A stretch of 34,474 bases of DNA from Candidatus Dojkabacteria bacterium (GTDB lineage: Bacteria > Patescibacteriota > Dojkabacteria > SC72): contig JAQWFF010000002.1 of NCBI GenBank assembly GCA_028704525.1, forward strand, positions 1 through 34,474, in the 5' to 3' direction. Below, one piece after another: positions 4,686-28,490 of the stretch. A model generated the notes under the pieces. It saw only the letters and a list, made by a program, of their open reading frames with translations, made no database searches and had not been told where the DNA came from. A program made the position numbers and the translations under genes. How positions within the stretch are numbered: position 1 is the first letter of the stretch; the number at the start of each line of letters is the position of its first letter.

Positions 4686-6440
4686 ATGGATGGTAAAATA
4701 TCAGAATTAGCAACAGAATCTATTCAAACGAGTCCACAAATGTTAACTGATTATAAACTAGATAAGGTTGTTGAATTACATATAGACAATGTTGATTCTC
4801 AAAAAGTCATTGAGATAAAGGACATGTTGACTTCTGAGGTTCTTTTAGAGAATCGTAAGCACGCACATGGAATAAATGTTTTAGGGGAGGGTTCTGTTGG
4901 CTATGATTACATAGCCCCTTTAACAGAAACTAAGTTTCTTGAAGATCCAAAGCAAATATTGGCAAAATATAGTGAAGAACTCCAAGTGAAAGAAAAGGAT
5001 ATTCAGGAAATGTCTGAAGATGATGCAGCAAGAAGAATCAGAGAGGAAGTTGAAAAAAGAAATTCACAAAGTTCTCAAAAGCGTCGAGCTGAAACGAAGC
5101 TACTTCAAGAACTTGGAGTTGATGGTTCTATAAAAATTCATATGTGTAAAGGTCCTTTCGATGCTAGATATTTAGATACTTCTTCTTCAGATCCAAAACA
5201 AGAGGAAGCGTTTACCTATGTAAGAAATCAAATAGAAAAAGAAATTAGAGTTCAAATTGCACTAGGGCCTGGATTTACAGAATATACAAATGAAAATGGC
5301 GAGATAGTTACAAATACTACTACATATATTGATCCTGAGACAAAAGCTTTGGGAAAAAGTGAAACAGTCTTTCACATTCCATCAAAAACGGGAGAACTAG
5401 AAAAATGGGATAAATATTGTAGGTATGTTTCTTCAAGATGTTCAGGAGCAGAATTTGATATATGGATTGAACCGAATCATAATCTGGATGATAATGGACA
5501 TGGCAAGTTTGAACATAATACTGATTCTGGTAGGCATGGAGAGTTTTCTTCTGAAGGTAGAAAACCTGAAGAATATGCGCTGGCAGTTATCGTAGCTTCA
5601 AATGCTATTAAACAAGAGGCTCCTGATTCAAAGGTAGGAATTAATGTTGCTTTTGTAGATATTGAGTATATTGAAAAAACAATTGAAACAATCAAAATCC
5701 TTGGTTATGATCCAACAAAAATAATCGATTATGTTTCATTTAACCCTTATAGGTTTGGGAAAAAGCCAGAAATGTGTGGACCGAAATGGAATGAGAATTT
5801 AGAAGGATTTCGTGGGGATAGTGCACCAAAAGGCAGGTTTGATTGGAATACAGAGGGGTCGTATGAGGAAGAGGTTCTTGCTCTAATGGGAAGGGTATCA
5901 AGTTTAGGAATAAGAGATATTCGTACTAGTGAATCAGGGTATCCCGTTGGTGAACTAACACGTCAACAGCAAGCAGAATATAATTTGAGAGGATGGGTTT
6001 TGGATAGATATTTAGGATTACCTGAGAGTCCTTGGACCCTCACATCTGAGAGTGAGGATTTCTCATTTATTGATAAAGAAGGCAATAAGACTGAAACCTT
6101 CTATGCATATAAAAATTTCAATTCAATTTTCTCCTCATCTATAATCCCTAGCGGAGAAATACACACTAAGGACGAGAAGGTTATGTGTAAAGTTTTTGAA
6201 GATGAGTCAAATGGTAGTCAAATTCTTGTGGTATGGTCTCCGACAGGATATTACTCTAATAAAGGAGAGAATAATAGACCAGTAAAGATATCTGTGCCAC
6301 TCCTAGGGGAAAAATCAGTTGAAATAATTACAGGACTTAGTAAAGACACTCCAAATATTGAAAAAAGGGCCACTAATAAACTTGAAATTAATGTTCATGG
6401 AGAACCGGTTATTATAAGAATTAGTAAAGGAAGTAACTAA
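4686..6440 (+). CDS. Hypothetical protein, possibly a glycoside-hydrolase-like TIM barrel
   Basis: 584 aa with no signal peptide. The only hints are NVAFVDIEY and TSESGYPVGE, which resemble GH clan-A acid/base and nucleophile strands. Weak. Confidence 0.3.
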   Translation: MDGKISELATESIQTSPQMLTDYKLDKVVELHIDNVDSQKVIEIKDMLTSEVLLENRKHAHGINVLGEGSVGYDYIAPLTETKFLEDPKQILAKYSEELQVKEKDIQEMSEDDAARRIREEVEKRNSQSSQKRRAETKLLQELGVDGSIKIHMCKGPFDARYLDTSSSDPKQEEAFTYVRNQIEKEIRVQIALGPGFTEYTNENGEIVTNTTTYIDPETKALGKSETVFHIPSKTGELEKWDKYCRYVSSRCSGAEFDIWIEPNHNLDDNGHGKFEHNTDSGRHGEFSSEGRKPEEYALAVIVASNAIKQEAPDSKVGINVAFVDIEYIEKTIETIKILGYDPTKIIDYVSFNPYRFGKKPEMCGPKWNENLEGFRGDSAPKGRFDWNTEGSYEEEVLALMGRVSSLGIRDIRTSESGYPVGELTRQQQAEYNLRGWVLDRYLGLPESPWTLTSESEDFSFIDKEGNKTETFYAYKNFNSIFSSSIIPSGEIHTKDEKVMCKVFEDESNGSQILVVWSPTGYYSNKGENNRPVKISVPLLGEKSVEIITGLSKDTPNIEKRATNKLEINVHGEPVIIRISKGSN

Positions 6441-8808: not shown

Positions 8809-9576
8809 TTGGTAGAACAGCAACCAGAAGAGGTCACAAAAATAACAGATTTTTCTAGAATTTTACCTATGGAGGATATGTATCTTCCTCTAGAAGATAA
8901 TATAGGTTCCAAAGCTGAACTAGGAGTGTATTGTAATAGATATGTTGAAAGAGATCTAACCAAAAAATTAGCAATAATATTAACAGGTTTTACATGTGCA
9001 GGTAAGGATACTGTAATGGATGAATTAGAATCCTTAGGACTTGTATATCATGTTGTTACAGCTACTTCTAGACCAAGAAGAATAGAGGAGCCTGAAGATA
9101 AATATCATTGGATTACAGTAAGAGAGAAAGGAGAGAAAGAAACAAATGAGGAATATGAAGAGAGTATTAAAAAAGACCATGATTTAGTAGAGTGTGATTG
9201 CCATTATAAACATGTTTATGGCTTACCAAGAAATTCTTTATTAGTAGAGGGTAGGGGTATTCCAGTTATAAGGCCAGATATAAATGGAACGAATACTTTA
9301 CATAAAGAGTTACCAAAATATGGATTTCAACCGATATCAATAGCAGTAGTTGCAGATAGTTGGGAACAGATATATAGAACTCTTTTAGAAGAAAGAGAAG
9401 AAACTCTAGGAGACAAGAATAGTAGGTTTATAGTAGATATAAATAGTGTTTCCAAATATAGTAATGTAGTAAACTACTTTTTACATAATAGTAGGGATGT
9501 GTATGGTGATATGAGTGGCTTAGAAAGGTCTGTTAGGGGAATGAGATATATAATTGAGATGTATACGAAAAAATAA
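8809..9576 (+). CDS. Guanylate-kinase-like nucleoside monophosphate kinase
   Basis: P-loop variant LTGFTCAGKDTV and VTATSRPRRIEEPEDKYHWIT (compare GK S.TTR.pR..E.dG.dY.F). The start is uncertain: TTG at 8809 or ATG at 8869. Confidence 0.55.
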   Translation: MVEQQPEEVTKITDFSRILPMEDMYLPLEDNIGSKAELGVYCNRYVERDLTKKLAIILTGFTCAGKDTVMDELESLGLVYHVVTATSRPRRIEEPEDKYHWITVREKGEKETNEEYEESIKKDHDLVECDCHYKHVYGLPRNSLLVEGRGIPVIRPDINGTNTLHKELPKYGFQPISIAVVADSWEQIYRTLLEEREETLGDKNSRFIVDINSVSKYSNVVNYFLHNSRDVYGDMSGLERSVRGMRYIIEMYTKK

Positions 9577-9798: not shown

Positions 9799-10332
9799 AT
9801 GGAAGAATTAGTATTAGAATTTCCAACTTATGCAAGAGAAAAAGATGCTAAAGCATATATTAAGGAACTAAGGAGCTTTAATTCTCAATTTAATGGTTGT
9901 GATGATCTAGAAAAATTTGAAGATTATCGAGAATGGGTTGACAGGGTTGTCGATTGGAACAAGGGTGTAAACTTACCAGATGATTATGCACAAGCTATAA
10001 CTTATTTTGTAGTTAGAGTTAAAGATAATAAAATTATAGGTATGGTAAACATTAGATACGGAGTAACAGAAGAAAATATCAAAAGAGGTGTGGGACATAT
10101 TGGTAGTGGAGTTAGACCTACTGAAAGAAGAAAGGGATATGGAACCGAGATTTTGAGAATATGTTTAGAAGAATGCAAAAAATATAATTTGCCAGAAATT
10201 CATTTGAACGTTAAGAAAGAAAATGTCAGTGCCATTAGAACTATAGAGAAAAACAACGGGGAATTAAATAAAAAGATTGTAATGGATAATGGGGAGATAT
10301 TTCTTAATTATATAATAATAGCGGATAATTAG
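9799..10332 (+). CDS. GNAT-family N-acetyltransferase
   Basis: GHIGSGVRPTERRKGYGTEILR carries the acetyl-CoA motif A (R-x-x-G-x-G). 177 aa. Confidence 0.75.
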   Translation: MEELVLEFPTYAREKDAKAYIKELRSFNSQFNGCDDLEKFEDYREWVDRVVDWNKGVNLPDDYAQAITYFVVRVKDNKIIGMVNIRYGVTEENIKRGVGHIGSGVRPTERRKGYGTEILRICLEECKKYNLPEIHLNVKKENVSAIRTIEKNNGELNKKIVMDNGEIFLNYIIIADN

Positions 10333-10516
10333 AACTTCCAGGCCCAAATAATCCTATCTTTGTAGCCCTTTGTGATTTTTAGACGTACCAATTACAAGAG
10401 TTGAATGAATAAAGCTTTTGTTGTACAATGATTTTCTATAAGTTGTTATATCAAGTATTATTAAAAATAAATATAAAACAATAGGTATTATAACAACGTC
10501 AAGCCCAATTGACAGA

Positions 10517-11431
10517 TTGCCTGAAGAAAAGATAGAAAAAGCGTATTCCTATCTTCGAAGTAAGGGTTGGGGTATTAAAGAGGCTCCTATTTGTAGGGAA
10601 AGTGAAGGATATCTTTCTCTTGGAAATATAAAGGAAAGAATCAAAGGTCTACATGATTTTGTTGTTGATAAAGATGTTGATGTAATTATGTCTTTTTGGG
10701 GTGGTACGAATACGAACCAATTATTACCTTATGTTGACTATGATCTAATAAAGAAGAATCCTAAAATATATGTCGGTTATTCAGATACCTCTGCATTACT
10801 TCTAGCTATTACCAAGAAGACAAATCTTGTTACATACCATGGTCCAGCAGCAATCACATATTCCAAGCCTGATTTGATGGAATACTGTTATGAATATTTC
10901 GACAAGGCCATAAAGGGAGGCGAGTGGAGTATAGAAGAACCCCAAAAGTATGCAGATGATTTGTATTTTCTTCGAGAAAAAGATGCCGATAGAAGAATAT
11001 TTAAAAAGAATCAAGGGTTAAAGATTTTCAGAGATGGAAATTGTGACGGAGAAGTTGTGGCTTCTAACTTGCAAACGCTTTTGGTATTAGCAGGAACAGA
11101 ATATCTCCCTTCTTTAAAAAATAAGGTCTTGTTTGTTGAGGAAGCAGAGGATGAACAAACACCAATGATACATAGGTTCTTTACCCAACTGTCTTTGCTT
11201 CAGGATTTTAAAGATATTAAAGGCTTGGTCGTTGGTAAATTTATGGATTATTCTAAGGTTTCTCAAGATAATTTGGAGACTATTTTTAAGGAGATTTCAA
11301 CAAGATTTAGAGGGCCATTAATTTATAATGCTTCTTTTGGGCATACAGATCCAATTTTTACTATCCCTAACGGTGCTAGGGTTAAAATAAAGTTAAGTTC
11401 TGAGGTAAAGATTAAATTTCACTATGACTGA
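10517..11431 (+). CDS. S66 LD-carboxypeptidase family protein (LdcA/MccF-like)
   Basis: Nucleophile motif VGYSDTSALL and His motif ASFGHTDPIFTIPNG. The conserved N-terminal strand (TIGIITTSSPI) is encoded in frame upstream of the track start, so the true start is probably within 10442-10516. Confidence 0.8.
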   Translation: MPEEKIEKAYSYLRSKGWGIKEAPICRESEGYLSLGNIKERIKGLHDFVVDKDVDVIMSFWGGTNTNQLLPYVDYDLIKKNPKIYVGYSDTSALLLAITKKTNLVTYHGPAAITYSKPDLMEYCYEYFDKAIKGGEWSIEEPQKYADDLYFLREKDADRRIFKKNQGLKIFRDGNCDGEVVASNLQTLLVLAGTEYLPSLKNKVLFVEEAEDEQTPMIHRFFTQLSLLQDFKDIKGLVVGKFMDYSKVSQDNLETIFKEISTRFRGPLIYNASFGHTDPIFTIPNGARVKIKLSSEVKIKFHYD

Positions 11432-12569
11432 GCATTTAAAAGGGGAATGTTACGAAGATATCTCAACTAAAATTACAGATTTCTACAACTCAAAAGGGTT
11501 AGACTATCGTGAACCACTGAGTTTAATCCCTGGTGAAAATGACAAAAGTGTTACTTTTACGTCTGCGACTATTAATAATTTTAAAGGATATTTAAGAGAG
11601 GAGGAAGAAATACCAGTTAATGGTGTATATACTATTCAGAATTGTCTTAGAACACGGAATCTAGATTATAGGTATGGGTTTGAAGAAACTCCTAGATTTG
11701 GTAGTTATTTTAGGATGTTTGGACTTATAAGAAGGCCAAACTTTTTATTAAAAACATATGCAGATACTATTGAATTTATTGAATCAGAATTAGGGGTCCC
11801 TTCAGAATCAATAGTGGTTCATAAATCTAGTGAACATGATATGTTTAACGAATTAATGAAAAAAAATTCAAAACAACGTTGGTTTGAAGATAAAATTGAT
11901 TGGTATAATTGGGAGTATGGGGAAGAAGATATTCGGGGTGAGGGTATTAGTATTGAAATACCCAATAAGTCAAATCTAGCAGAGACACAAGTGATTGGAA
12001 ATATTGTTGTTATATATAAAAAGGATGAGCCTATTGCTGTTGAGTGGGGTTTTGGTCTAGAAACAACGATGAGTCGCTTAGAGGGTCTCCCACACCCAAT
12101 ATTTTCTTCTGTGATAGGTGAGAGATATCTATATAAGAATAATCATCATATTAATGAAAAAGATATCTTGTTTCTTGATTACACTAATATTCTTTATCAC
12201 CTAGAAGCAAATGATGTAAAGCAGGGGAGGGATAAGTATGTTGATAGAACTATTAAACAATTATTCCAAGGATTGTCAATGCAGATATTTTTAACACTTA
12301 GAAATATCTCAGACTTAGAAGATTTAATAGGAAGGAAAAAAGATGGTTTATTTGAAGAATTCGAGGGATACAATGACTCTTTTCAGGAACGAGTTTCTTT
12401 GTTTTTGAATTCATACAAACAAATAGTGTCGAACTATGCGGGGCGCAGAAGTGAAAAGAAAATAGAGGAGACAATTAATAAAAGTGCTCAAAAATATGGA
12501 TTTAACAAAGAACAAAAGGAAACTTTAATTAACTTTAGGAACTCTCTTAATGAAGAATCTCTCAGTTAG
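11424..12569 (+). CDS. Stand-alone alanyl-tRNA-synthetase catalytic-domain homolog
   Basis: It aligns by eye to the E. coli AlaRS N-terminus. [24 protein letters not shown] matches [33 protein letters not shown] matches TSQRCVRAGG. YFRMFG matches [15 protein letters not shown] matches VDTGMGLER. The ATG overlaps the upstream stop (ATGACTGA). Confidence 0.65.
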   Translation: [381 protein letters not shown]

Positions 12570-13368
12570 GGGTATCAAAGAATTGTCATATACCTCTTTT
12601 TTAGGACTTATTAACCAGTGGAATGTTCCACCAGGAGCCTATGAAACAATAAATAAATGGGTTACATTCTCTAATATGGACAAAAACTCTCATTTATTAG
12701 AGATTGCTACTACAACAGGCTTCTCCTTAAGAGAGGCAAGTATTCTGTCTGGTTGTTCTGGTGTGGGTATTGACATATCAGAAGACTCAATAAAAACAGC
12801 TAAATTAAATAAAGAAAGATATCAATCTAATTCAAAAATTGAATATATTGTACATGATGCTTATAAGTATGTGCCAAAGAAACCCTTCAGTCACGTAATA
12901 ATTGGAGCGGCTTTAAGATTCTTTGATGAGCCTGAGAAAGTAATTGAAAAATGTGTAAAAGACTTTTGGGAATCTGAGGGGTATTTATTATCTTGCGAAT
13001 TTTATATAGTAGAGGATATCCCCCAACCTCTTGTTGAGAAGGCATATGAGGTCTTTGGCATTCATATAACCCAGGTACCATATAAAGATGTAATGTCAGT
13101 CTACGAAGGTTTAGAATTGATATATGAGGATAGAAAGAAACCAATACCTGAAACCGAGAAGGAGTTGCAATACTATTGTAAATGCACGATTGATCGTTTT
13201 GTTCGAGAAAAAGGAATTAAAGATGAAGGAATCTATCGGGCATTATTTGATAGGTTGTATCTTATTAAAAAGACAAGCAATGATTTAAGAGAGTTTCAAA
13301 ATTATAATATTTTAGTGCATAGATATCGAAAGGATCTGTTTCCTAATAGATATGTAGAACTTTTTTAA
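12550..13368 (+). CDS. Class I SAM-dependent methyltransferase
   Basis: Motif I-like LLEIATTTGFSL and an acidic motif II (GVGIDISEDS). It overlaps the upstream gene by 20 nt. Confidence 0.6.
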   Translation: MKNLSVRGIKELSYTSFLGLINQWNVPPGAYETINKWVTFSNMDKNSHLLEIATTTGFSLREASILSGCSGVGIDISEDSIKTAKLNKERYQSNSKIEYIVHDAYKYVPKKPFSHVIIGAALRFFDEPEKVIEKCVKDFWESEGYLLSCEFYIVEDIPQPLVEKAYEVFGIHITQVPYKDVMSVYEGLELIYEDRKKPIPETEKELQYYCKCTIDRFVREKGIKDEGIYRALFDRLYLIKKTSNDLREFQNYNILVHRYRKDLFPNRYVELF

Positions 13369-13369
13369 G

Positions 13370-13885
13370 ATGATTTTAACTGGCCAAGAAATTAAAAAAA
13401 AAGTTAATGAAGGTTCAATAACCATAGAACCATTTTATATGGAGAGTCTCAATCCCAATAGTTATAATTATCATCTTTCGCCTAATCTTATTATAATAGA
13501 AAGGAGGATAGATTCAAAACAAAAAACAGAATACAAAAAAGTTACTATTCCAGAGAAAGGCTTAATTTTAGTGCCATCAAAATTGTATCTTGGGAGTACT
13601 AGTGAAATTATAGGTAGTATGAAATATGTAACTTCATTGATAGGGAGATCATCAATTGGTAGACTTGGACTTTTTATGCAAATTACTGCGGACCTTGGTC
13701 AATTAGGGCAAAGTCATAAGTGGACATTGGAGATGCATGTTGTAAAGAAGTTAAAAGTTTATCCTAATATGAAAATTGGACAAGTGAGTTTTTGGAAGAC
13801 GTTTGGGAAAAATGACTTTGATTATATTGATCAATATAACATGTCTAACGAACCTATTATAAGTAAAATATACAAAGAATTTTAA
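13370..13885 (+). CDS. dCTP deaminase (Dcd/dUTPase-fold) paralog 1, catalytic Glu present
   Basis: MILTGQEIKK N-terminus, GRSSIGRLGL, and WTLEMH aligning with E. coli IVLEFY (E138). It starts 1 nt after the upstream stop. Confidence 0.75.
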   Translation: MILTGQEIKKKVNEGSITIEPFYMESLNPNSYNYHLSPNLIIIERRIDSKQKTEYKKVTIPEKGLILVPSKLYLGSTSEIIGSMKYVTSLIGRSSIGRLGLFMQITADLGQLGQSHKWTLEMHVVKKLKVYPNMKIGQVSFWKTFGKNDFDYIDQYNMSNEPIISKIYKEF

Positions 13886-13887
13886 AT

Positions 13888-14409
13888 ATGATATTGACAG
13901 GGCATGAGATTAAAAAACAAGTTCGGAGAGGAAGAATAGTGATTGAACCTTTTAATGAAGCAAATATTCAACCCAATTCTTATGATTTCCATTTAAGCAA
14001 ATATATTAAATTTTACACTGATGAGATTCTAGATCCAAAGGTGAAAAATAAAGTCAAGGAGATAGTGATTCCCGAAGAAGGGTTATTGCTTAAGCCAGAT
14101 GAATTATATTTGGGGATGGTGGAAGAGACAATTGGGAGTGAATATTATGTTCCTATCTTACGTGGACGTTCTTCTACGGGTAGGTTAGGTTTATTTGTTC
14201 ATATAACAGCGGATCTTATAGATATTGGCTCAATCAACAATTGGACATTAATGTTGCATTCTGTTGTCCCTGTAAAAGTATATGCTGGTATGAAAATAGG
14301 GCAAGTTACTTTTTGGGTACCAGAGGGAAAGATTGAGTTGTATAATGGTAAATACCAAGGATCGTTAAAGCCTATGGAATCTCAAAGTTTTAAAGATTAT
14401 AAGGATTAA
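13888..14409 (+). CDS. dCTP deaminase-fold paralog 2, catalytic Glu replaced by Met
   Basis: MILTGHEIKK and GRSSTGRLGL are present. WTLMLH occupies the position of the catalytic-Glu motif. It starts 2 nt after paralog 1. Confidence 0.7.
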   Translation: MILTGHEIKKQVRRGRIVIEPFNEANIQPNSYDFHLSKYIKFYTDEILDPKVKNKVKEIVIPEEGLLLKPDELYLGMVEETIGSEYYVPILRGRSSTGRLGLFVHITADLIDIGSINNWTLMLHSVVPVKVYAGMKIGQVTFWVPEGKIELYNGKYQGSLKPMESQSFKDYKD

Positions 14410-14568: not shown

Positions 14569-15372
14569 ATGTATATTAATACTATGAATAGTAACCCATT
14601 TCTGTCTAAAGAGATTAGCTTTAAAAGAATATTAAAGGGTTTTGCTATTACTCTTCCTTGTATGATAATGATATTTGTAATAGGTAATTACTCCTATAAC
14701 TTTATAGACAGTACTTTACGATCACATTACGTTGGAGAGAAAGTATTAGGAGTAGAAGATACAGAATCAAGAGTAATCGGTGTGGAAGAAATAAAAAAGC
14801 ATTTGAAATCTTTAATTCCTGAAAAATATGAATTAGTTGAATCTCCACCGGAAGGGTCAGATAGTGAAGACGACGGTTGTATTAACCTTTTTGGAATATA
14901 TCCCAAGACATATTCTGAAGCACAGAGAAAATATTTGTCAGAGGCTGGATTAATGTATTGTGAAGATATTTATAAGGCAGTATTCCGTTCTCAGATGGAA
15001 GATGCTAAGTATAGCCAAGAAAAGAATGCGTGGGCATGGATTGATATAGGTGATCCAGAGGGAAATGTAGGAGGCTATTATGAACAGACATTCTATGGTA
15101 ACAATCTGGTATCGATTGCAGATGCATGGGGAAGTCATTATGATGGTAATCTATATATAGTAAGAATAAAGAACAGTAAAGAGTTAGTAGTTTTGTCTAT
15201 TCCACTGAGTAACAGAATTAGATGTGAGACTTATGACGAAAATGGGGTAGAAACTATGAAAGAGGATTGTGTGAATTTCATGAATTCTATGGATATGACC
15301 ACAGATTGGGTACCACAAGAAATATATGACAATTATTATAATGATTTACTAGAGATGTTACGAGGAATTTAA
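14569..15372 (+). CDS. Membrane-anchored hypothetical protein
   Basis: A single N-terminal TM (GFAITLPCMIMIFVIGNY) followed by an acidic extracytoplasmic domain. An alternative start is ATG 14584. Confidence 0.5.
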   Translation: MYINTMNSNPFLSKEISFKRILKGFAITLPCMIMIFVIGNYSYNFIDSTLRSHYVGEKVLGVEDTESRVIGVEEIKKHLKSLIPEKYELVESPPEGSDSEDDGCINLFGIYPKTYSEAQRKYLSEAGLMYCEDIYKAVFRSQMEDAKYSQEKNAWAWIDIGDPEGNVGGYYEQTFYGNNLVSIADAWGSHYDGNLYIVRIKNSKELVVLSIPLSNRIRCETYDENGVETMKEDCVNFMNSMDMTTDWVPQEIYDNYYNDLLEMLRGI

Positions 15373-15678: not shown

Positions 15679-16602
15679 CTATTTATCTATAGCATTTTCA
15701 TCATGAAAATACTGAAAGTAGAATAGAATGTGTAGAATATGATTAAAGGAATCGTCTTTACACCATAATTCAGAGATGTCTTCTTTTAAGATGTTGCCAA
15801 CGACCTTAGTCTTATTCTGATCAAATTTTTGAGAGACAAAGTTACCTGCTTCTTCAATAAGGGGACAAGCACTTTCGAAATATTTGTAATCAAGAATTTT
15901 TAGATCTAAATCATTTGCTTTTTTAAGTTCAGAGACTTTCTCTCTTAATCCCTTCTCCTGACTTTGTGACAAGCATATTTTATCTTTAATATATTCAGCC
16001 CTTCCTTGTGCAGAAACAACAATAAAATATAAACTACAAGCTCCAAGCTCTTTTGAAAAATTGTACATATATTCTATATACTGATAGTTCCTTTTTTGTA
16101 AAGTACAATTTATACGTACAGGTATTTTATTCTTATGTAGTAATTTAACGGTATTACAGGCTTGAATGAAGGAGTTAGGGTGTCTAAGAAGATTGTTTAT
16201 CTTTTCTGGTCCATCTATAGATACATTGACGAAGGTCTTAGATTCTTTTAAAGCTTTAATATTATCCTCGGTCATAATCGAACCGTTAGTCGTTACGACA
16301 GTTGCTAAATTACACTGATGTGCAAATAGGAGAATATCATTGAGATCTTTTCTTAAGAAAGGCTCTCCTCCTGTTATATCTACACGAATAACTCCAGCTG
16401 AGGATAGTTTTTTAAGAATTTTTTTAATATTAGAATGGGAGAGATCTATGTTTTTATTATTGCTTCCATTCGCAATACAGTGAGGGCAAGAGAAATTACA
16501 TCTATTTGTTATTCTTAAACAGGTTGATAAAGGAGAATGGAGTTTAAACTTTTGGAATTTGTCTAGATCTTTATTGTAATTAACATCTCCAGTAATTTTC
16601 AT
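15679..16602 (-). CDS. Radical SAM protein (single-gene module)
   Basis: CNFSCPHC (CX3CX2C) and ITGGEPFL. TGGTATAAT lies 6 nt upstream of the ATG (leaderless-type). Confidence 0.8.
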   Translation of the reverse strand: MKITGDVNYNKDLDKFQKFKLHSPLSTCLRITNRCNFSCPHCIANGSNNKNIDLSHSNIKKILKKLSSAGVIRVDITGGEPFLRKDLNDILLFAHQCNLATVVTTNGSIMTEDNIKALKESKTFVNVSIDGPEKINNLLRHPNSFIQACNTVKLLHKNKIPVRINCTLQKRNYQYIEYMYNFSKELGACSLYFIVVSAQGRAEYIKDKICLSQSQEKGLREKVSELKKANDLDLKILDYKYFESACPLIEEAGNFVSQKFDQNKTKVVGNILKEDISELWCKDDSFNHILHILFYFQYFHDENAIDK

Positions 16603-18003: not shown

Positions 18004-18900
18004 ATGAAAATATACCAAGACATACTATCCAACTTCATAGGAATAATACTACTAAAGATAGATACAGAAGGAAATATACTAAATATAACCATAGATACAA
18101 AAGGTATAACAAAAAACAACCCTCCTAAAACAGTCTACAAACTATTTAGCAAGGAAGACAAATTTAGAATAGACAGAATACTATCCACAGGATACAGTGG
18201 AAAGAAAAAATACTTCGAACTATACCAAGGATATGGAAAAGGACAATATGTAGATGTATCAACCGCATACTATGACAAAGAGCTATACATGTATATACAA
18301 ATGTTCGAAAGTGAAAGAGAAAGAGCTGTAATGTATGACAGATATGTAGAAAAACTTGCAACTATAGCAGAAAAAGATGTACTAACAAAGGTATTAAACA
18401 GACATGGACTATGGGAATCTGTAAAGAGCATTGTAACTAATGTAGATCCAGAAAGAAGGATAGGAATAGTATATATGGATGTAGATAATCTAAAACATAT
18501 AAATGACACATACGGTCATGAAAGTGGAGATAAACTAATACTAAAGATAACAGAAATACTAAAATCAACAGTAAGACACAGAGATATAGTAACAAGATAT
18601 GGAGGAGATGAATTCGTAATAGTAGTTCAAGAATACTCAGGAAAAACAAGTACAGCATATGGTCTTGCACAAAGACTAAAAAGACACATAGAAGAGATAA
18701 AGGGGAAATATGCATCAACAGCATCATTTGGAGTACATATAACAAAGGTTAAAAATCTCTCAAAGTATAAAGATGATGAAAAAGCTCTAGAACAAGCATG
18801 GAAGAAAGAACTAGAAAAAGCAGATATGGCTACATACAAATCCAAAGAAGCAGGAAAGAACACAATATCAACATCCTCAGAATACAAACGATACTACTAA
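18004..18900 (+). CDS. Diguanylate cyclase (GGDEF domain) with an uncharacterised N-terminal domain
   Basis: RYGGDEFVIV active site and DVDNLKHINDTYGHESGD. Confidence 0.9.
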   Translation: MKIYQDILSNFIGIILLKIDTEGNILNITIDTKGITKNNPPKTVYKLFSKEDKFRIDRILSTGYSGKKKYFELYQGYGKGQYVDVSTAYYDKELYMYIQMFESERERAVMYDRYVEKLATIAEKDVLTKVLNRHGLWESVKSIVTNVDPERRIGIVYMDVDNLKHINDTYGHESGDKLILKITEILKSTVRHRDIVTRYGGDEFVIVVQEYSGKTSTAYGLAQRLKRHIEEIKGKYASTASFGVHITKVKNLSKYKDDEKALEQAWKKELEKADMATYKSKEAGKNTISTSSEYKRYY

Positions 18901-19220: not shown

Positions 19221-19289
19221 AATATTAGTCTAACAATTTAAAAGTATTGGAATATAGGCATTTAATCATATTCCTTGTATAATTATACC

Positions 19290-20360
19290 ATGTTAAAAAT
19301 TGATATAAACAAAAATAAAAAAGAAGCAATACAAAAAGCCATAGATGTTCTAAAGGATGGTGGATTAATAGTATATCCAACAGAAACATGCTATGGAGTT
19401 GGATGTGATGCAACAAATGACAAAGCACTACAAAAACTTCTTCAATACAAGAAATTCAGAGGTTCCAAACCAATATCCATAGCTGTATCAGACAGGAATA
19501 TGGTAGAGGAATATGTAGACATTAATGAGATGGCAGACAATATATACAGAAACTTTCTCCCAGGACCAATAACCGTTATATCAATTGGAAAGGGGAATCT
19601 AAAAGCACCGGTAGTATCAGCAAGTGGTGGAGTAGGAGTTAGATACCCAGACTATCAATTCACATTAGATCTAATTAAGGAATTTGGTAAACCAATAACA
19701 GCAACATCAGCAAATATGTCATACAGAAGTGCACCATATGATATTGAGAAGTTGATAGACAATCTTCCAAAGAAATCATTAGAGTTAATAGACATATTCT
19801 TAGATGCAGGACAACTATCTCACAATGAACCCTCTACAGTACTAGATACAACATTAAATGAACTATCTATTCTTAGACAGGGTAAACTACAATTTGAAGA
19901 TGCACTAGTTAGAAATAGAAAGGTTGGGGATATAATATCTAAAAATACAGAGGAGACTATTAAATATGGTTCTGATTTTGCAAAAAGATATCTTAAAGAA
20001 CAACCTGTACTAGTTGCACTCTCTGGGGAGCTAGGGGCAGGAAAGACCCAATTTACAAAAGGTATAGCAAAGGAATTGGGGGTAACTGAGACAGTTAATT
20101 CTCCAACATATACCATAATCAATGAGTATGAATATGGGAACAGGGTACTTGCACACATGGATACATGGAGATTAGAGAAGATAGCGGGTAGTGGTCTTGT
20201 AGAGCATTTAGAAAAGGGTGATATTGTAGTAGTAGAGTGGGCCGACAAATTCTTTGGTGAAATATCTGCACTATGTGACAATATGAATGTTAAGATGTAC
20301 AAGGTAGTTATCAAGTACATATCATTAACAGAAAGGAGCATTGAGATATATGAAGGATAA
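19290..20360 (+). CDS. Fused TsaC (Sua5/YrdC domain) and TsaE (YjeE P-loop) t6A biosynthesis protein
   Basis: The N-terminal half has VYPTETCYGVGCDA plus SANMS. The C-terminal half has LSGELGAGKTQFTKGIA and SPTYTIINEY. Start set at ATG 19290, 6 nt after TGTATAAT, not the track TTG at 19275. Confidence 0.8.
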   Translation: MLKIDINKNKKEAIQKAIDVLKDGGLIVYPTETCYGVGCDATNDKALQKLLQYKKFRGSKPISIAVSDRNMVEEYVDINEMADNIYRNFLPGPITVISIGKGNLKAPVVSASGGVGVRYPDYQFTLDLIKEFGKPITATSANMSYRSAPYDIEKLIDNLPKKSLELIDIFLDAGQLSHNEPSTVLDTTLNELSILRQGKLQFEDALVRNRKVGDIISKNTEETIKYGSDFAKRYLKEQPVLVALSGELGAGKTQFTKGIAKELGVTETVNSPTYTIINEYEYGNRVLAHMDTWRLEKIAGSGLVEHLEKGDIVVVEWADKFFGEISALCDNMNVKMYKVVIKYISLTERSIEIYEG

Positions 20361-21408
20361 TCAACCATTAATAATTGCATTCGATACAAGCTGTGATGAT
20401 ACATCGTGTGCAGTACTACAAGGAAAGAAAGTACTCTCAAGTGAAGTATCTTCTCAGATAGAGATACATGCTCCATACGGTGGAGTAGTACCAGATATTG
20501 CAAGAAGAGAACATGAAAGAAATATCCCAATTGTATTTGAGGAGGCTCTTAGAAAAGCAAAGGTATCAATCGAAGATATAGATTATGTTGCATGTACATA
20601 TGGTCCAGGATTAGCTATAGATTTGGAAGTGGGATTATCTTTCGCAAAAGAGCTTGCTATTAAATATTCTAAACCCTTTATTCCAGTTAATCATATGGAA
20701 GGGCATCTTCTTTCTGGATTAATAGAAAATACAAAAGGAAAAACGGTAGTTGATATGGATGAGAGCAATATATTCCCAGCATTGGGTCTTCTTGTATCAG
20801 GAAAGCATACTGACTTGGTATATGTAGAGGATATTGGAAAGTATACAAAGCTTGGAGAAACACTAGATGATGCAGTAGGGGAGGCCTTTGACAAAGTTGC
20901 TAGAATGTTAAATTTAGGATATCCAGGTGGTCCAGTAATATGTGATTTTGCAAAAAGAGGAAAGTCAGGAATATATACATTTACAGTACCTATGAAGAAT
21001 TCCAAAGATCTTAACTTTAGTTACTCTGGTATAAAGACAGCAGCACTATACAAGATTAAGGAGTTAAAAGAACCTATAAAAGAATGGATATATGATTTCA
21101 CTAGAGGTTTTCTAGATGCAATTATAGAATCACTTAAGATTAAATTGGAACTAGCTATATCCAAATATCCATCTGTTAAATCACTGTTTGTTGGAGGTGG
21201 TGTATTTAATAGTCAGGAGATATTAACAAAGATTGGGAATGTAGCAAGGGAGTATGGTTTGCAGTATATATATTCTGAGAAAGAGTATAGAGGAGATAAC
21301 GCAGGGATGATTGGGGTTGTTGCCTATTACAAGATACAAAATGGTCAGTATATAACTGAAGTGTCAGAGATAGAGAAGATAGATAGGGAACCAAGATTGT
21401 CTATCTAA
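20350..21408 (+). CDS. tsaD: tRNA N6-adenosine threonylcarbamoyltransferase TsaD
   Basis: AFDTSCDDTS, VNHMEGHL and GYPGGP motifs. ATG 20350 lies 11 nt after AGGAG (20334-20338) and overlaps the upstream stop. Confidence 0.9.
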   Translation: MKDNQPLIIAFDTSCDDTSCAVLQGKKVLSSEVSSQIEIHAPYGGVVPDIARREHERNIPIVFEEALRKAKVSIEDIDYVACTYGPGLAIDLEVGLSFAKELAIKYSKPFIPVNHMEGHLLSGLIENTKGKTVVDMDESNIFPALGLLVSGKHTDLVYVEDIGKYTKLGETLDDAVGEAFDKVARMLNLGYPGGPVICDFAKRGKSGIYTFTVPMKNSKDLNFSYSGIKTAALYKIKELKEPIKEWIYDFTRGFLDAIIESLKIKLELAISKYPSVKSLFVGGGVFNSQEILTKIGNVAREYGLQYIYSEKEYRGDNAGMIGVVAYYKIQNGQYITEVSEIEKIDREPRLSI

Positions 21409-22830: not shown

Positions 22831-22907
22831 GGACGACTAGCTCAGCTGGTTAGAGCATCTCGTTTACACCGAGAAGGTCATAGGTTCGATCCCTATGTCG
22901 TCCACCA
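22831..22907 (+). tRNA. tRNA-Val (anticodon TAC), CCA encoded
   Basis: GGACGAC TA GCTC AGCTGGTTA GAGC A TCTCG TTTACAC CGAGA AGGTC ATAGG TTCGATC CCTAT GTCGTCC A CCA. All stems pair. Confidence 0.95.
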
Positions 22908-24674
22908 TCCATGTTTTTCAGCCTGTAACTTCAGTTCAGGTTCTAGTGAGAAAAGCATTTCACCGAGCATCTTTGAGGGGATTTTCAATGATATTTTTAG
23001 TTTGTAAGGAATCATCTGTCCTTCTTTCTTTGGGCCCGAAACACTATCTGTTTTTCTTTTTGGTCTAGAGAAAATAATAATTTCGTCAACAATCATGTGT
23101 ATTAGAGAGTAGAGTTCTTGATCTGAGCCCTTTTCCTCAAGCATCTTAAGTGCATCCCCATATTTATCTTTAAAAATATTGAATACTTTTATATATTCGT
23201 GTGTATTCGTGAATATTGATAACTCACTTTCTAAGTCTTCTTTCTCTTTAATATATCGTTTATATTTCTTATCAAGGTCTTTGATTCTCTCAATCTTCTC
23301 TTCTTTTTTAATGTCTCCGTTTTGATACATTTCAATCACTCTAGACCTTGCAGAGGCATGTGTATTTAGAAGATCCAATAAGTTATCCAATTGTCCTTTC
23401 TTTCTTTTAATATCATTCTTGCTAGATTCTAGCTTCTGTTGATGATGGAATACTGGAGTTGGGTCTTTTATTAGATCGTATACTAGTTGTAGTACATGTT
23501 GTTCTAAAGGAATTGCAGGTAGGCTAATTGTATGACAAACAGTATCTCTTGTTTTGCTCTTGGATGTATTTTTACAACTACATTCATAATAATAAGCCAT
23601 TTCCCCTGTGCTTCTAACTTTGTGAGGCAGTCCATTCCAACTGTATGGTTCAGTGTGTTTTGTCGGATCAAAACAGTTTGCACATTTGAGTAACCCTTGT
23701 AAAAGATACAACCTTTGTTGCTTAGAATAGTTCCCTCTTCGTAGATGATTACTTCTTGACCTATATTCTTGAGCCTTTTGGAAAAGTTCTTTGTCTATTA
23801 TCGCTTGTTTGTGGCGATATATATCCCACTTATCTTGAGGAAGTTTATTACCATCTTTGCTTTTGTTGTAATATTGATTCCCAATATAAACTTCATCTTT
23901 TAGTATTCTACCTACAACTTCGGGATACCAGTGATACCTACCATGTCTACTACCCTTTCTCTTTTTGTTTGGATCTTCCTTGTGATGAATGAATCTGTAT
24001 TCAATAGGGCTAGGGACTTTGTGGTCTCGTAAATATTCTGCTATTTCTCCTTGACTGAATCTGTCATGAACAAACATATTGAAGATGGATCTTACAACTT
24101 CAGTTTCTTCTTTTTGGATAAGTAGCTTTTTGTTTTCATCTTTAACATAACCTAGTGGGGCAGTATTCATGAAGGCTCCTTTTTCTGCAGCTTGTTGTCT
24201 CCCAGCATGGGTCCTTTCTTTAATCGTTTCTAGTTCCAATTCTGCAATTACACCGATGATTCCCAGCATCGCTCTTCCGAAGGGAGTAGAGGTATCTATA
24301 CTTTCTTGGGATGAAAGAAATTCTATCTTCGGTTCTTGTTTCTCAAATATGTCTATTATTTCTAGCAGGATTTTTAACCGTCTTGCAAACCTATCTATTT
24401 TGTAAACAGCAACTATATCAAAAGGAGGTGTGTCTGATAGGGTTATATCTTCCATTAGCTTTCTAAAAGCGACTCTTTCCATGGGTTCTTTTGTTCCGCT
24501 CTCACCCTCATCAATGTAGATATATTCTTCTCCTGCAAGTTCGTATTCGCCACCTTTGGATTTAATAAGTCCTAGTAATGCTTCTCTCTGAAGATCTACC
24601 CCAAACATATCTATCTGTTCTTCGGTAGAAACCCTGATATATAGCGCTACTTTTTTCTTTTGTTTTTCTTCCAT
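22893..24674 (-). CDS. Large serine recombinase (integrase)
   Basis: N-terminal resolvase domain (VALYIRVSTEEQ, YKIDRFARR), Cys-rich zinc-ribbon region (LKCANCFD...YYECSCKN) and a C-terminal coiled coil. The last four codons plus the stop are the reverse complement of the tRNA-Val 3' end (22893-22907). Confidence 0.85.
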   Translation of the reverse strand: MEEKQKKKVALYIRVSTEEQIDMFGVDLQREALLGLIKSKGGEYELAGEEYIYIDEGESGTKEPMERVAFRKLMEDITLSDTPPFDIVAVYKIDRFARRLKILLEIIDIFEKQEPKIEFLSSQESIDTSTPFGRAMLGIIGVIAELELETIKERTHAGRQQAAEKGAFMNTAPLGYVKDENKKLLIQKEETEVVRSIFNMFVHDRFSQGEIAEYLRDHKVPSPIEYRFIHHKEDPNKKRKGSRHGRYHWYPEVVGRILKDEVYIGNQYYNKSKDGNKLPQDKWDIYRHKQAIIDKELFQKAQEYRSRSNHLRRGNYSKQQRLYLLQGLLKCANCFDPTKHTEPYSWNGLPHKVRSTGEMAYYYECSCKNTSKSKTRDTVCHTISLPAIPLEQHVLQLVYDLIKDPTPVFHHQQKLESSKNDIKRKKGQLDNLLDLLNTHASARSRVIEMYQNGDIKKEEKIERIKDLDKKYKRYIKEKEDLESELSIFTNTHEYIKVFNIFKDKYGDALKMLEEKGSDQELYSLIHMIVDEIIIFSRPKRKTDSVSGPKKEGQMIPYKLKISLKIPSKMLGEMLFSLEPELKLQAEKHGWWTT

Positions 24675-26721: not shown

Positions 26722-26768
26722 GGGATTTTCTTGAAGTGACCAATTTAAACTTATATAATAAGCTCAAT

Positions 26769-28490
26769 ATGAAAGAAGTATTTTGTCCTCATTGTACAAA
26801 AGAGTTAGTTTTAGATAGTAACGACTTGGCTCTTGAAGTGATAAGATGTCCATCCTGTGGCTGGTTCTTTCTTTTATCAGAAGCAGAGAATGGAGATTCG
26901 GGAGATGATTTGTTATTGATAAACATTGAAACTAAATACAACCAAGATGGATCAGTTAAGGCAAGGGCTGGATATAAAGCAAATATCGGTAGTAGACCTC
27001 TTGACCGAGTCGTAAATATATCTGCAGACAGCAAATACGAATTATCAGAAAAGATAAGAGAAACAGCATATGATCTCAAGGAACAGGCAAAAGCTGAGAA
27101 GTCGTCATTGGGTATTGAAGAACAGATGACAATGTTACAAGGTATTTTGGAACATGGCATTAAAACAAAGATAGATTTTAAGTGGGAAGATGAAAAGAGA
27201 AGGGATAAGTTTGAGAAGAAGAAACCTAGTTTTGACAAAACAAAGCCTAAAAAGGAAGATGTTTATCGTTCCTTATGGATATTTGAGAATATATTCAAAA
27301 AATATGCTGCTAAGAAAAACAAGGAGTACGAACAGAGGTTGAAAGAGCTAACAAAAGATTGGGAGAAGGAGAAAAAGGAATTTGAGAAAAGTTTGGCAGA
27401 ATGGGAAAAGGAGAAAGAGAGTTTTGAAAAAGAGAAAGAGGAATTTAACAAGAAAATTGACGAGAAGATAGAAAAACAGAAAAAAGGGAAGAAGGAGATT
27501 GTAGAGGAGTATTTTGAGAAGATTCTTGCATTATCAGAATATCCTACTAACTTCCCTCATAAATTTGATCTTGGATATAAAGCAGAGGAAAAGATGCTCG
27601 TTATTGAATATGTTCTTCCTGAGTACGAAGTTATTCCCAAATATCAAAGAGAAGAATATAAGAGAACAACAGGAGAAAGGAAGAAAGTACCTCTTTCAGA
27701 ATCTGCAAGAGAAAAGTTATATAACGAAGTTCTTTATTCTCTACCATTAAGAACACTACACGAGATATTTGAAAATGATAAATATGAGAATATAGATAGT
27801 GTTGTGTTTAATGGTTGGGTAGACACTCTTGATAAAGCAAAGGGAAAGAAAAAGCATATATGTATATTAACAGTTCATGCAAAGAAGGAAGACTTTGCAG
27901 AGATTGATTTAAGAAAAGTAGAACCAAGAGCTTGCTTCAACGGACTGAAAGGTGTTGGTAGTAGCAAATTAAGTAGTCTTGCTCCTGTTGCTCCAATTTT
28001 AAAACTTAATAAAGAGGATAAGAGGTTTATTAGTGCTGAAGAGGTCTTAAATGATGTTGATAGCTCTGTTAATATTGCCTCTATGGATTGGGAAGACTTT
28101 GAACATCTTGTAAGAGAAGTTTTTGAACAGGAGTTTGCAAAATCAGGGATGGAGGTTAAGGTAACTCAGTCAAGTAGAGATTTGGGTGTTGATGCTGTAG
28201 CTTTTGATCCAGATCCTTTTAGAGGAGGGAAAATTATTATTCAAGCTAAGCGATATACAAATACTGTGAAGGTAGAGTCTGTCAGAGCCTTGTATGGCAT
28301 TATGCAGGATGAAGGTGCTATGAAGGGTATTATTGTTACTACATCTGATTATGGTCCCGATGCTTATAAATTTGCACAGGGTAAGCCAATTACTTTGATA
28401 AATGGGAATAACCTGTTGTCAATGTTAGAGAAGTATGGGCATAAAGCAAGGATAGATATAAAAGAAGCTAAGAAACTTTTACAGGAGTAA
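26769..28490 (+). CDS. Zinc-ribbon / coiled-coil / Mrr-type restriction endonuclease-domain fusion protein
   Basis: N-terminal CPHC...CPSC, a central KE-rich coiled coil, and a C-terminal Mrr_cat-like core (DWEDFEHLVREVF...GVDAVAF...IIIQAKRY...GIIVTTSDYG). Start set at ATG 26769, 9 nt after TATAAT, not the track GTG at 26736. Confidence 0.65.
   Translation: MKEVFCPHCTKELVLDSNDLALEVIRCPSCGWFFLLSEAENGDSGDDLLLINIETKYNQDGSVKARAGYKANIGSRPLDRVVNISADSKYELSEKIRETAYDLKEQAKAEKSSLGIEEQMTMLQGILEHGIKTKIDFKWEDEKRRDKFEKKKPSFDKTKPKKEDVYRSLWIFENIFKKYAAKKNKEYEQRLKELTKDWEKEKKEFEKSLAEWEKEKESFEKEKEEFNKKIDEKIEKQKKGKKEIVEEYFEKILALSEYPTNFPHKFDLGYKAEEKMLVIEYVLPEYEVIPKYQREEYKRTTGERKKVPLSESAREKLYNEVLYSLPLRTLHEIFENDKYENIDSVVFNGWVDTLDKAKGKKKHICILTVHAKKEDFAEIDLRKVEPRACFNGLKGVGSSKLSSLAPVAPILKLNKEDKRFISAEEVLNDVDSSVNIASMDWEDFEHLVREVFEQEFAKSGMEVKVTQSSRDLGVDAVAFDPDPFRGGKIIIQAKRYTNTVKVESVRALYGIMQDEGAMKGIIVTTSDYGPDAYKFAQGKPITLINGNNLLSMLEKYGHKARIDIKEAKKLLQE

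Follow-up and report, generated by a model that had tools for sequence, protein, structure and literature searches.

A candidate biosynthesis and immunity cassette for an aminoacyl-nucleotide inhibitor in a Dojkabacteria operon

Five tightly packed plus-strand genes lie at positions 10442-14409 of the 34,474-nucleotide stretch analyzed here, which we call the window (positions 1 to 34,474 of contig JAQWFF010000002.1, GenBank assembly GCA_028704525.1, from a Candidatus Dojkabacteria bacterium). They encode an S66 peptidase of the MccF clade that is a putative self-immunity hydrolase (10442-11431), a truncated alanyl-tRNA synthetase (AlaRS)-like protein that is a putative AcmF-like aminoacyl transferase (11424-12569), an MccD-family transferase dependent on S-adenosylmethionine (SAM) and of the 3-amino-3-carboxypropyl type (MT; 12550-13368), and two paralogs of the dCTP-deaminase fold, Dcd1 (13370-13885) and Dcd2 (13888-14409). 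The junctions between successive genes are -8, -20, +1 and +2 nt in the list of open reading frames (ORFs), which reproduces the layout described by a first-pass annotation made from the sequence alone; the gene families named there were each confirmed with Pfam and NCBIfam. Reading homology and gene context together, we favor with moderate confidence the view that the operon is a peptide-independent biosynthesis and immunity cassette for an aminoacyl-pyrimidine-nucleotide inhibitor of aminoacyl-tRNA synthetases (aaRSs). The product would be a synthetase poison of the same kind as processed microcin C, ascamycin or agrocin 84; any specific product structure merits much less confidence than this function class.

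The five genes travel together well beyond Dojkabacteria. A word-based search with the AlaRS-like protein returned 13 clusters among 5.8 billion proteins, and every sufficiently long contig of those clusters carried S66, AlaRS-like, MT, Dcd and Dcd genes within unrelated flanks. A HMMER scan with the profile of the AlaRS-like family gave 803 representatives, of which 341 had E < 1e-10, and the best 150 of the 803 are short stand-alone proteins of ~115-550 aa. Among distant members, three loci (P0014, P0015 and P0017) keep the gene order of the window, in another (P0019) an opposite-strand S66 precedes Dcd, Dcd and AlaRS-like, and a fifth (P0163) reads HTH, AlaRS-like, MT, Dcd, Dcd, with DUF1826 and an opposite-strand S66 beyond. 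With an MT alignment we collected 74 loci from GTDB species genomes and added Pseudomonas kilonensis separately. Counts given below refer to 77 MT-bearing loci scored by HMM and clustering, and they are lower bounds because many loci are cut by contig ends. All five genes occur in at least 32 of the 77, the Dcd pair with MT in at least 65, S66 in at least 49, AlaRS-like in at least 46, and either S66 or a spare aaRS in at least 62. Because the five genes recur in these 32 loci with different flanks and orders, they form a conserved module whose arrangement is far beyond chance, which answers the neighborhood check that the first-pass annotation had proposed. A literature search found no description of this gene combination, in keeping with that annotation's remark that it was not recognized as a described system, although absence from the literature is not proof.

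Hosts of the related loci include Dojkabacteria, many other bacteria of the candidate phyla radiation (CPR), DPANN archaea, and Alpha- and Gammaproteobacteria, with more than half of the loci coming from CPR bacteria and DPANN archaea. Isolates with an MT-bearing locus are Pseudomonas kilonensis, Burkholderia lata, Paenibacillus baekrokdamisoli, several Streptomyces, Kitasatospora and Paractinoplanes; Streptomyces have the MT-Dcd core alone. The genes do not diverge evenly. Compared with the window, one locus (L015) has MT, Dcd1 and Dcd2 proteins of 50-59% identity, whereas its AlaRS-like protein and S66 peptidase are 31% and 34% identical, and across the family MT and Dcd proteins are 45-60% identical and AlaRS-like and S66 proteins only 25-35%. 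Because MT and Dcd are well conserved while AlaRS-like and S66 evolve fast, the pattern fits a constant nucleotide scaffold bearing a variable aminoacyl part. A separate group of 'type 2' loci (L024, L026, L029, L031 and others) has the order S66, pyridoxal-phosphate (PLP) decarboxylase, MT, Dcd, Dcd, class II aaRS; its proteins are 75-92% identical between metagenome-assembled genomes (MAGs) labeled Hyphomicrobium, Saccharibacteria and Thermotogota, a likeness that reflects either contig mis-binning or very recent transfer.

A tblastn search of plasmids with MT retrieved the mccD gene of E. coli mcc operons (E 6e-17, with 27% identity and 92% query coverage), in a region that encodes ThiF/MccB, MFS/MccC, MT/MccD and GNAT/MccE, with S66/MccF on the opposite strand. 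Profile alignment of the MT family with MccD by hhalign gave a probability of 99.9 and E 5.9e-33 over 251 columns. The homology is full-length, taking in N- and C-terminal extensions beyond the methyltransferase core, and the N-terminal motif NQWNVPPGA aligns with QQDNTPPGA of MccD. For an AlphaFold2 (AF2) model of MT (pLDDT 93), Foldseek ranked the MccD crystal structure 5FCD first (E 1e-21, TM 0.82), ahead of generic methyltransferases (next match E 3.5e-14). By sequence and model, then, MT is an MccD homolog of the 3-amino-3-carboxypropyl (acp) transferase type, and acp is the predicted group transferred. MccD moves this group from SAM to the phosphate of a peptidyl-nucleotide, after which the N-terminal domain of MccE decarboxylates it (PMC8323819). 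A PLP decarboxylase of the MccE N-terminal type is absent from the window cassette and present in 26 of the 77 related loci. The earlier description of MT as a SAM methyltransferase is right about a SAM enzyme with a class I methyltransferase fold, but the methylated product that went with it does not follow, since an enzyme of MccD type need not methylate. A weak MT homolog is also found on the agrocin 84 plasmid pAgK84 (NC_006277.2, 3623-4258; 24.7% identity, 78% of the query, E 2e-11).

The peptidase matches both Pfam S66 domains (N- and C-terminal, E 5e-29 and 1e-25). Its Protein Data Bank (PDB) matches are MccF-like BA_5613 at E 7e-52, E. coli MccF at E 5e-44 and LdcA-type enzymes at 1e-10 to 1e-13. 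Because the matches to MccF types are far stronger than those to LdcA, its sequence places it in the MccF immunity clade and not with LdcA, and it is predicted to hydrolyze the amide of an aminoacyl-nucleotide; of the initial 'MccF/LdcA-type' label, only the first half stands. In the reverse direction, E. coli MccF matches 54 S66 ORFs in related loci (best family member E 2e-54), and equivalents of the Ser118-Glu243-His311 triad are kept in all 52 family members aligned, including that of the window. The positions of MccF Arg246 and Lys247, which we take to contact the acidic side chain of processed microcin C, are acidic in the S66 family (Glu in 47 of 52; Asp, Glu or Thr). If those contacts hold, the change would suggest a basic or amine-bearing substrate. 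In a loop whose alignment is unreliable, the column aligned to the nucleobase-stacking Trp186 of MccF holds Leu in the window (Leu in 22 and Trp in 19 family members), and pairwise alignment to BA_5613 puts a Tyr of the peptidase opposite the Trp.

The start of the S66 gene is unusual. Its frame is open from 10442, right after a stop codon at 10439-41, and the conserved N-terminal strand KTIGIITTSSP is in frame from ~10475, upstream of the first canonical start (TTG 10517); no ATG, GTG or TTG was found in the frame between 10442 and that strand. The ATG of a 78%-identical ortholog aligns with GTT at 10445, and a second genome (L091, 7893-) has the same start-less N-terminus with two amino-acid (nonsynonymous) differences. 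We considered a 5'-truncated pseudogene and judged it unlikely, given that the conserved strand stays in frame and that the start-less arrangement is kept in L091. Because the second genome retains this N-terminus, we favor a non-canonical start, probably ATA 10448 or ATT 10457/10460. Just upstream of the frame, a sigma-70-like hexamer pair, TTGAAT-17-TACAAT (10401-10429, plus strand; found in a consensus scan), is a possible but weakly supported operon promoter; in the promoter and terminator scan of the region, nothing exceeded shuffled expectation, the count of sigma-70-like sites included.

The AlaRS-like protein (381 aa) matches Pfam tRNA-synt_2c at 35.6 bits over residues 16-148 only and NCBIfam alaS at 34 bits against a cut-off of 457, and it lacks the ~870-aa length, full class II motifs and editing and C-Ala domains of a canonical alanyl-tRNA synthetase. 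Its family profile nevertheless matches the whole catalytic domain of A. aeolicus AlaRS (residues 6-232, E 9e-8). The AF2 model (pLDDT 82, pTM 0.81) has AlaRS catalytic fragments of ~440 aa as its top Foldseek matches (E 5e-13, TM ~0.6) and combines an aminoacylation core with a helical domain whose structure can be superposed on the AlaRS tRNA-recognition region. Among 152 family members, the motif-2 Arg is kept in all and the motif-3 Arg in none (Thr in 113). The equivalent of Asp235 (E207 in the window) is Glu in 139 and Asp in 1, and that of Asn212 (N193 in the window) is Asn in 138 and Gln in 8. The Glu of AlaRS 'LEIWN' is replaced by Val in the window and is Asp or Glu in most other members, and most alanine-pocket residues are retained.

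Because the class II motif-3 Arg has been lost, the AlaRS-like family probably does not activate amino acids with ATP. The first-pass annotation had recognized the AlaRS core correctly; the loss is seen in 152/152 members. A precedent exists in AcmF, a shortened AlaRS-like protein that retains just the domains for aminoacylation and tRNA recognition, has lost residues for ATP and alanine activation and shows the changes D232E and N219Q (PMC12945691). AcmF takes Ala-tRNA from the cluster-encoded AlaRS AcmD and N-acylates the sulfamate NH2 of dealanylascamycin, and AcmE hydrolyzes the product (PMC12945691). Judged by the published description of AcmF, the AlaRS-like protein resembles it and may be an aminoacyl-tRNA-dependent transferase. 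Because AcmF works from aminoacyl-tRNA, a lack of ATP binding, which the annotation would have counted against its proposal, would reject the idea wrongly.

Dcd1 and Dcd2 belong to the Pfam DCD family (E 9e-30 and 9e-39, respectively). We aligned them to M. tuberculosis (Mtb) Dcd (2qxx) and PDB 4xjc and then across 70 orthologs each. Their losses are complementary. Dcd1 has the deaminase Glu (Mtb E129; TLEM) in 70/70 orthologs and the motif-III Asp (Mtb D119) in 0/70, with His in 58 and Gln in 12, the window among the latter. Dcd2 has the motif-III Asp (IDIG) in 70/70 and the deaminase Glu in 0/70, with Gln in 52 and Met in 18, Met being the window residue. The combination of Glu and Asp in one subunit that marks dCTP deaminases and DCD-DUT enzymes is thus absent from all 70 orthologs of each paralog. 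All 70 orthologs of either paralog retain equivalents of Ser102 and Arg106, which bind phosphate, and Gln148 is kept in both. In Dcd2, the C-terminal lid reads GKYQ in the window, with G-K-Y kept in 69-70 of 70 orthologs, and the sugar-gate aromatic residue that packs on deoxyribose is replaced by Ser in 61 of 70. Everywhere compared, the two are distinct orthologous lineages and always adjacent.

Active sites of the Dcd fold lie between subunits. From the complementary residue losses and the invariant adjacency, we infer that Dcd1 and Dcd2 form an obligate heteromer with divided labor and a changed reaction or substrate. The initial annotation of two dCTP-deaminase paralogs is upheld as to family, but not as a redundant pair, each having lost one of the two catalytic residues. 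If our model is right, a role as a scaffold-forming enzyme would be new for the Dcd fold.

Larger relatives of the cassette add enzymes of recognizable kinds. The PLP decarboxylase of the 26 loci belongs to the Orn/DAP/Arg family and is homologous to MccE residues 48-321 (best E 1.7e-14). Beside the MT-Dcd1-Dcd2 core we found a class II aaRS of Asp/Lys/Asn type in 13 loci, LeuRS in 11 and PheRS-alpha with an FDX-ACB domain in 9; further recurrent neighbors are SerRS, class I LysRS, ATP-grasp ligases, DUF1826, a CAR-type reductase, P450s and serine recombinases. In two loci (L031 and L041), two copies each of the PheRS-alpha-FDX-ACB fusion, which has a mitochondrial-type architecture, flank the cluster. 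The P. kilonensis island, located between cysM and gacS, runs HTH regulator, LeuRS, multi-transmembrane protein, MT, Dcd1, Dcd2 and DUF1826, then aldo-keto reductase, glyoxalase, alpha/beta-hydrolase, ATP-grasp and AlaRS-like genes. Among the matches listed, close relatives of its LeuRS come from a few Pseudomonas species only (P. gregormendelii, P. batumici and P. fluorescens), and no other LeuRS exceeds 50% identity to it; cluster LeuRSs of different proteobacteria are 27-47% identical to each other. By sequence divergence and by analogy with AgnB2 or AbmK, these are spare, divergent copies of the kind used for self-resistance. Both MccF-mediated immunity and self-resistance through aaRS paralogs such as AgnB2 and AbmK are established (PMC8323819).

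One Streptomyces plasmid (Streptomyces sp. NBC_00239, locus L095, 6864-20516) carries the Dcd pair without an MccD-like MT, in a nucleoside-antibiotic-like cluster that also encodes an Erm-type rRNA methyltransferase, a TauD dioxygenase, a PIG-L deacetylase, glycosyltransferases, a ProRS-like protein, a HIT protein (the MccH class of phosphoramidases), two radical SAM enzymes and an S66 peptidase. E. coli MccB and MccC, used as BLAST queries, yielded no homolog in any locus analyzed. No MccA-like ORF was noted in the intergenic region, the only part inspected for one and without a dedicated search. ARAGORN detected no tRNA genes inside the clusters, only ordinary flanking tRNAs. Genetic-code expansion with a dedicated tRNA, which the many aaRS paralogs had suggested, was rejected on that ground.

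These observations can be assembled into a proposed pathway. Dcd1 and Dcd2 would assemble into a trimer or hexamer containing both, which binds a pyrimidine (d)NTP, (d)CTP being the simplest case, with the deaminase Glu held in Dcd1-type pockets and the dUTPase Asp, for attack on the alpha-phosphate, in Dcd2-type pockets; the outcome would be conversion of the NTP to a nucleoside-monophosphate scaffold. The MccD-like enzyme would then use SAM to alkylate the scaffold phosphate with acp, which in related clusters the MccE-N-like decarboxylase would trim to aminopropyl. The AlaRS-like enzyme would place an aminoacyl group on a scaffold amine to give a stable amide, its donor probably being aminoacyl-tRNA and not an ATP-activated amino acid. 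Inside the producer, the MccF-like S66 peptidase would cleave this amide and so confer self-immunity. In larger clusters a spare aaRS (LeuRS, LysRS, SerRS, ProRS or others) could provide immunity, aminoacyl-tRNA or both, instead of the peptidase or in addition to it, and its type would match the variable amino-acid moiety. The window cassette would represent a minimal version of the pathway. Alternatively, the acceptor may be the alpha-amine of the acp group, in which case the S66 step would be a classical carboxypeptidase-like cleavage. The first-pass annotation had proposed synthesis of, or self-protection from, an aminoacylated and methylated pyrimidine nucleotide; the MccF clade, the MccD homolog, the likeness to AcmF and the spare aaRSs and decarboxylase all favor that view, with the methylation left aside.

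The origin of the acceptor amine is the weakest link of this scheme. Of the five gene products, the Dcd pair alone could generate it, and for this reason we put forward an ammonia-transfer idea that we regard as speculative and rather doubtful. The Dcd1 Glu pocket would deaminate (d)CTP, and the released NH3, in place of water, would attack the alpha-phosphate in the Dcd2 Asp pocket to give (deoxy)uridine 5'-phosphoramidate and PPi, making the pair a novel type of P-N bond-forming enzyme; using aminoacyl-tRNA, the AcmF-like enzyme would N-acylate the NH2, and alkylation of the phosphate would fall to the MccD-like enzyme. If this were true, five small genes would make an N-acyl phosphoramidate like that of processed microcin C with neither a peptide precursor nor MccB. 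No other antibiotic-type pathway would then be as common among the ultra-small CPR bacteria and DPANN archaea, which might turn it against their hosts.

Several points weigh against the aminoacyl-nucleotide reading as a whole. The five proteins include no enzyme known to form P-N or N-acyl scaffolds and no locus has an MccB/ThiF homolog, so that the acceptor amine lacks an obvious source. Minimal CPR and DPANN cassettes come without exporter, regulator or spare aaRS, and in the window cassette, which has no MccE-N-type decarboxylase, MT may transfer methyl instead of acp. The likeness of the AlaRS-like protein to AcmF comes from the published description of AcmF; AcmF N219Q is not shared, Asn being the prevailing residue as counted above, and the retained motif-2 Arg and most of the alanine pocket remain compatible with an ATP-dependent reaction. 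In CPR genomes, some of the neighboring aaRSs could have housekeeping roles and owe their place to synteny, and several MAG taxonomic labels are doubtful. Finally, one cassette (L009) adjoins a type I restriction-modification (R-M) system and GmrSD, which is compatible with a defense role.

Defense is the alternative that the first-pass annotation itself had offered, as an anti-phage or conflict module acting on the nucleotide pool: the Dcd pair and MT would deplete or modify (d)CTP on infection, or make a chain-terminating or translation-arresting aminoacyl-nucleotide, with the S66 peptidase as antidote in uninfected cells. We think this unlikely. Such a toxin-plus-hydrolase logic would suit abortive infection, the sporadic distribution is consistent with horizontal transfer, and several loci have neighboring serine recombinases, or an integrase with a Prim-Pol. 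However, PADLOC-DB v2 gave no match for the S66, AlaRS-like, Dcd1 or Dcd2 proteins and only a generic mad2 methyltransferase domain for MT, the MT family is absent from IMG/VR viral contigs, and sensor or effector domains typical of defense systems are lacking. The cassette of L011 sits among ribosomal-protein, replication and aaRS genes, and the content of relatives is natural-product-like (spare aaRS, ATP-grasp, P450, CAR-type reductase, glycosyltransferases and a membrane protein). A known defense system was rejected on the PADLOC and IMG/VR results; defense as such, weakly supported by the L009 neighborhood, is kept as a minor rival. An improbable reading is modification of RNA or of a nucleotide cofactor, in which the AlaRS-like protein, the MccD-like acp or methyl transferase and the Dcd proteins would install or salvage a modified pyrimidine, aminoacylated or carrying acp, in tRNA, rRNA or a cofactor of the cell's own. 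Modification of RNA uridines with acp is well established, the AlaRS-like protein retains its aminoacylation core together with its tRNA-recognition-like helical domain, and in some CPR genomes the cassette lies among translation genes. Yet free nucleotides are the substrates of the Dcd/dUTPase fold, and the triphosphate-binding residues persist in both paralogs; an MccF-type hydrolase or a spare aaRS would have no obvious role; no tRNA gene is associated with the clusters; and the distribution is sporadic and universal in no lineage, with just the 13 close AlaRS-like clusters in the protein set searched.

It also seems decidedly improbable that the cassette serves detoxification or salvage only, with the S66 peptidase cleaving exogenous microcin-C-like or aminoacyl-nucleoside antibiotics, the Dcd pair and MT processing the nucleotide, and nothing being made. 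Stand-alone MccF homologs that confer resistance to microcin C are common in bacteria (PMC8323819), and in the window a GNAT gene lies just upstream of the operon. But enzymes of the MccD and AcmF types serve biosynthesis, clusters of clear biosynthetic content carry the MT-Dcd1-Dcd2 core with no S66, and the GNAT is neither conserved with the module nor similar to the C-terminal domain of MccE. Each of the families has well-known housekeeping members, so that one might picture a coincidental cluster of LdcA for murein recycling, an AlaRS fragment, a generic methyltransferase and, to serve dTTP synthesis, duplicated dCTP deaminases. Against such a picture, which we hold to be most improbable, stand a co-occurrence conserved across phyla with shuffled gene order, an S66 peptidase much closer to MccF than to LdcA, the incomplete catalytic set of either Dcd paralog, an AlaRS-like protein without the motif-3 Arg, editing and C-Ala domains, and an MT that is specifically MccD-like.

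In the window, the operon is surrounded by housekeeping genes on chromosomal DNA of its host, which belongs to Dojkabacteria (WS6) within the CPR. Two plus-strand genes upstream, for a guanylate kinase (GK)-like P-loop protein (8809-9576) and a GNAT acetyltransferase (9799-10332; Pfam Acetyltransf_1, E 1e-12), had been named alongside the operon by the first-pass annotation, but they are not conserved with the module. The kinase assignment is itself weak (45.7 bits against a cut-off of 263 for NCBIfam guanylate kinase), and the GK-like protein has no homolog beside the module in the other loci compared. A GNAT homolog adjoins the module solely in the closest relative, L091, and the window GNAT has no BLAST similarity to the MccE C-terminal domain, so that with its non-conservation we discarded it as an analogue of that domain. 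Directly 3' of Dcd2, a 267-aa ORF (14569-15372) has a hydrophobic N-terminal stretch and no Pfam match, and no homolog of it was found beside the module in other loci. A 584-aa ORF at 4686-6440 is likewise without a Pfam match. On the minus strand, a radical SAM protein (15679-16602) matches PADLOC prokaryotic-viperin models (E 9.5e-25); we rejected it as a part of the module on the grounds that generic rSAM/SPASM models score higher and that no homolog lies beside the module elsewhere. Neither of the two radical SAM genes of the window has homologs in the other loci compared.

Further downstream, a GGDEF-domain protein with weak secondary matches to the Cas10 palm and GIY-YIG (18004-18900) adjoins tRNA-Asp, and a Sua5/TsaC-TsaE fusion beside TsaD (19275-21408) makes up a compact pair for t6A synthesis, in which the domain fusion is unusual. 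The segment 22742-31370 begins with tRNA-Leu and tRNA-Val and continues with a large serine recombinase (22893-24674, minus strand), an FtsK-gamma protein, a small terminase, an Mrr-type endonuclease (26736-28490), a NYN protein and a UDG-YunG fusion. It is probably an integrated mobile element or prophage remnant, starting ~8 kb downstream of the operon after tRNA-Val.

If the aminoacyl-nucleotide model is right, the module would define an undescribed, widely transferred family of 'Trojan-horse warhead' pathways in which tailoring and immunity enzymes of microcin C are merged with an ascamycin-type tRNA-dependent acyl transferase. The variety of spare aaRSs (Leu, Lys, Ser, Pro, Phe and Asp/Asn/Lys) suggests that inhibitors against different synthetases exist as a natural library, which could be of use in antibiotic discovery and chemoenzymatic synthesis. 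CPR bacteria and DPANN archaea are thought to be nearly devoid of specialized metabolism, and the cassette could be a tool of their episymbiotic lifestyle. Culturable carriers, namely P. kilonensis, P. batumici, Burkholderia lata, Paenibacillus baekrokdamisoli and Streptomyces spp., make the hypothesis testable.

Among known chemotypes, the closest to the predicted product would be, by analogy of structure, phosmidosine, a prolyl N-acyl phosphoramidate with an O-alkylated phosphate. It differs in being a purine nucleotide (8-oxoadenosine), and our literature search found no description of its gene cluster. Phosmidosine, from Streptomyces durhameusis, is a small non-ribosomal phosphoramidate nucleotide antibiotic (PMC6429109). 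In the agrocin 84 (agn) and albomycin (abm) systems, the aaRS-like enzymes AgnA and AbmF build the aminoacyl-nucleotide mimic and a spare, insensitive aaRS (the LeuRS AgnB2 and the SerRS AbmK) provides self-immunity; compared by description, they use other scaffolds and enzyme sets, with no Dcd pair reported. The Dcd proteins share with DCD-DUT of M. jannaschii and M. tuberculosis the fold, the phosphate-binding Ser and Arg, Gln148 and, in Dcd2, the GKYQ lid, with 2qxx and 4xjc as best PDB matches; there, however, Glu and Asp reside in one polypeptide, whereas here they are split between adjacent paralogs and the sugar-gate aromatic is lost.

The two systems most like the operon are those of ascamycin and microcin C. 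With the ascamycin enzymes AcmD, AcmE and AcmF of Streptomyces sp. 80H647, the AlaRS-like protein shares the AcmF architecture and its Asp-to-Glu change (D232E), and related clusters carry a full aaRS (compare AcmD) and a hydrolase (compare AcmE); the LeuRS, alpha/beta-hydrolase and AlaRS-like genes of P. kilonensis parallel the AcmD/E/F trio. The family nevertheless does not share N219Q, the window hydrolase is an S66 peptidase and not an alpha/beta-hydrolase, and the Dcd pair and MccD-like enzyme stand in place of sulfamate and halogenation genes. In comparison with the E. coli mcc operon, three Mcc homologs are found across the operon family, two of them (MccD-like and MccF-like) in the window itself and the third, the MccE N-terminal PLP decarboxylase, in the related loci noted above. 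Several related loci also have S66 on the opposite strand beside the biosynthetic genes, as mccF is, and the expected end product would likewise be a non-hydrolyzable aminoacyl-nucleotide. The operon differs from mcc in lacking MccB and MccC homologs, in the acidic residues where MccF has basic Arg246 and Lys247, in an aminoacyl group that would come from the AlaRS-like transferase instead of a ribosomal peptide, and in a nucleotide that is probably a pyrimidine; the invariant partners of its MccD-like gene are two Dcd-fold proteins. We classify the operon, by kind, with the aminoacyl-nucleotide aaRS-inhibitor clusters, among which it would be set apart by unusual enzymology and an unexpected host range.

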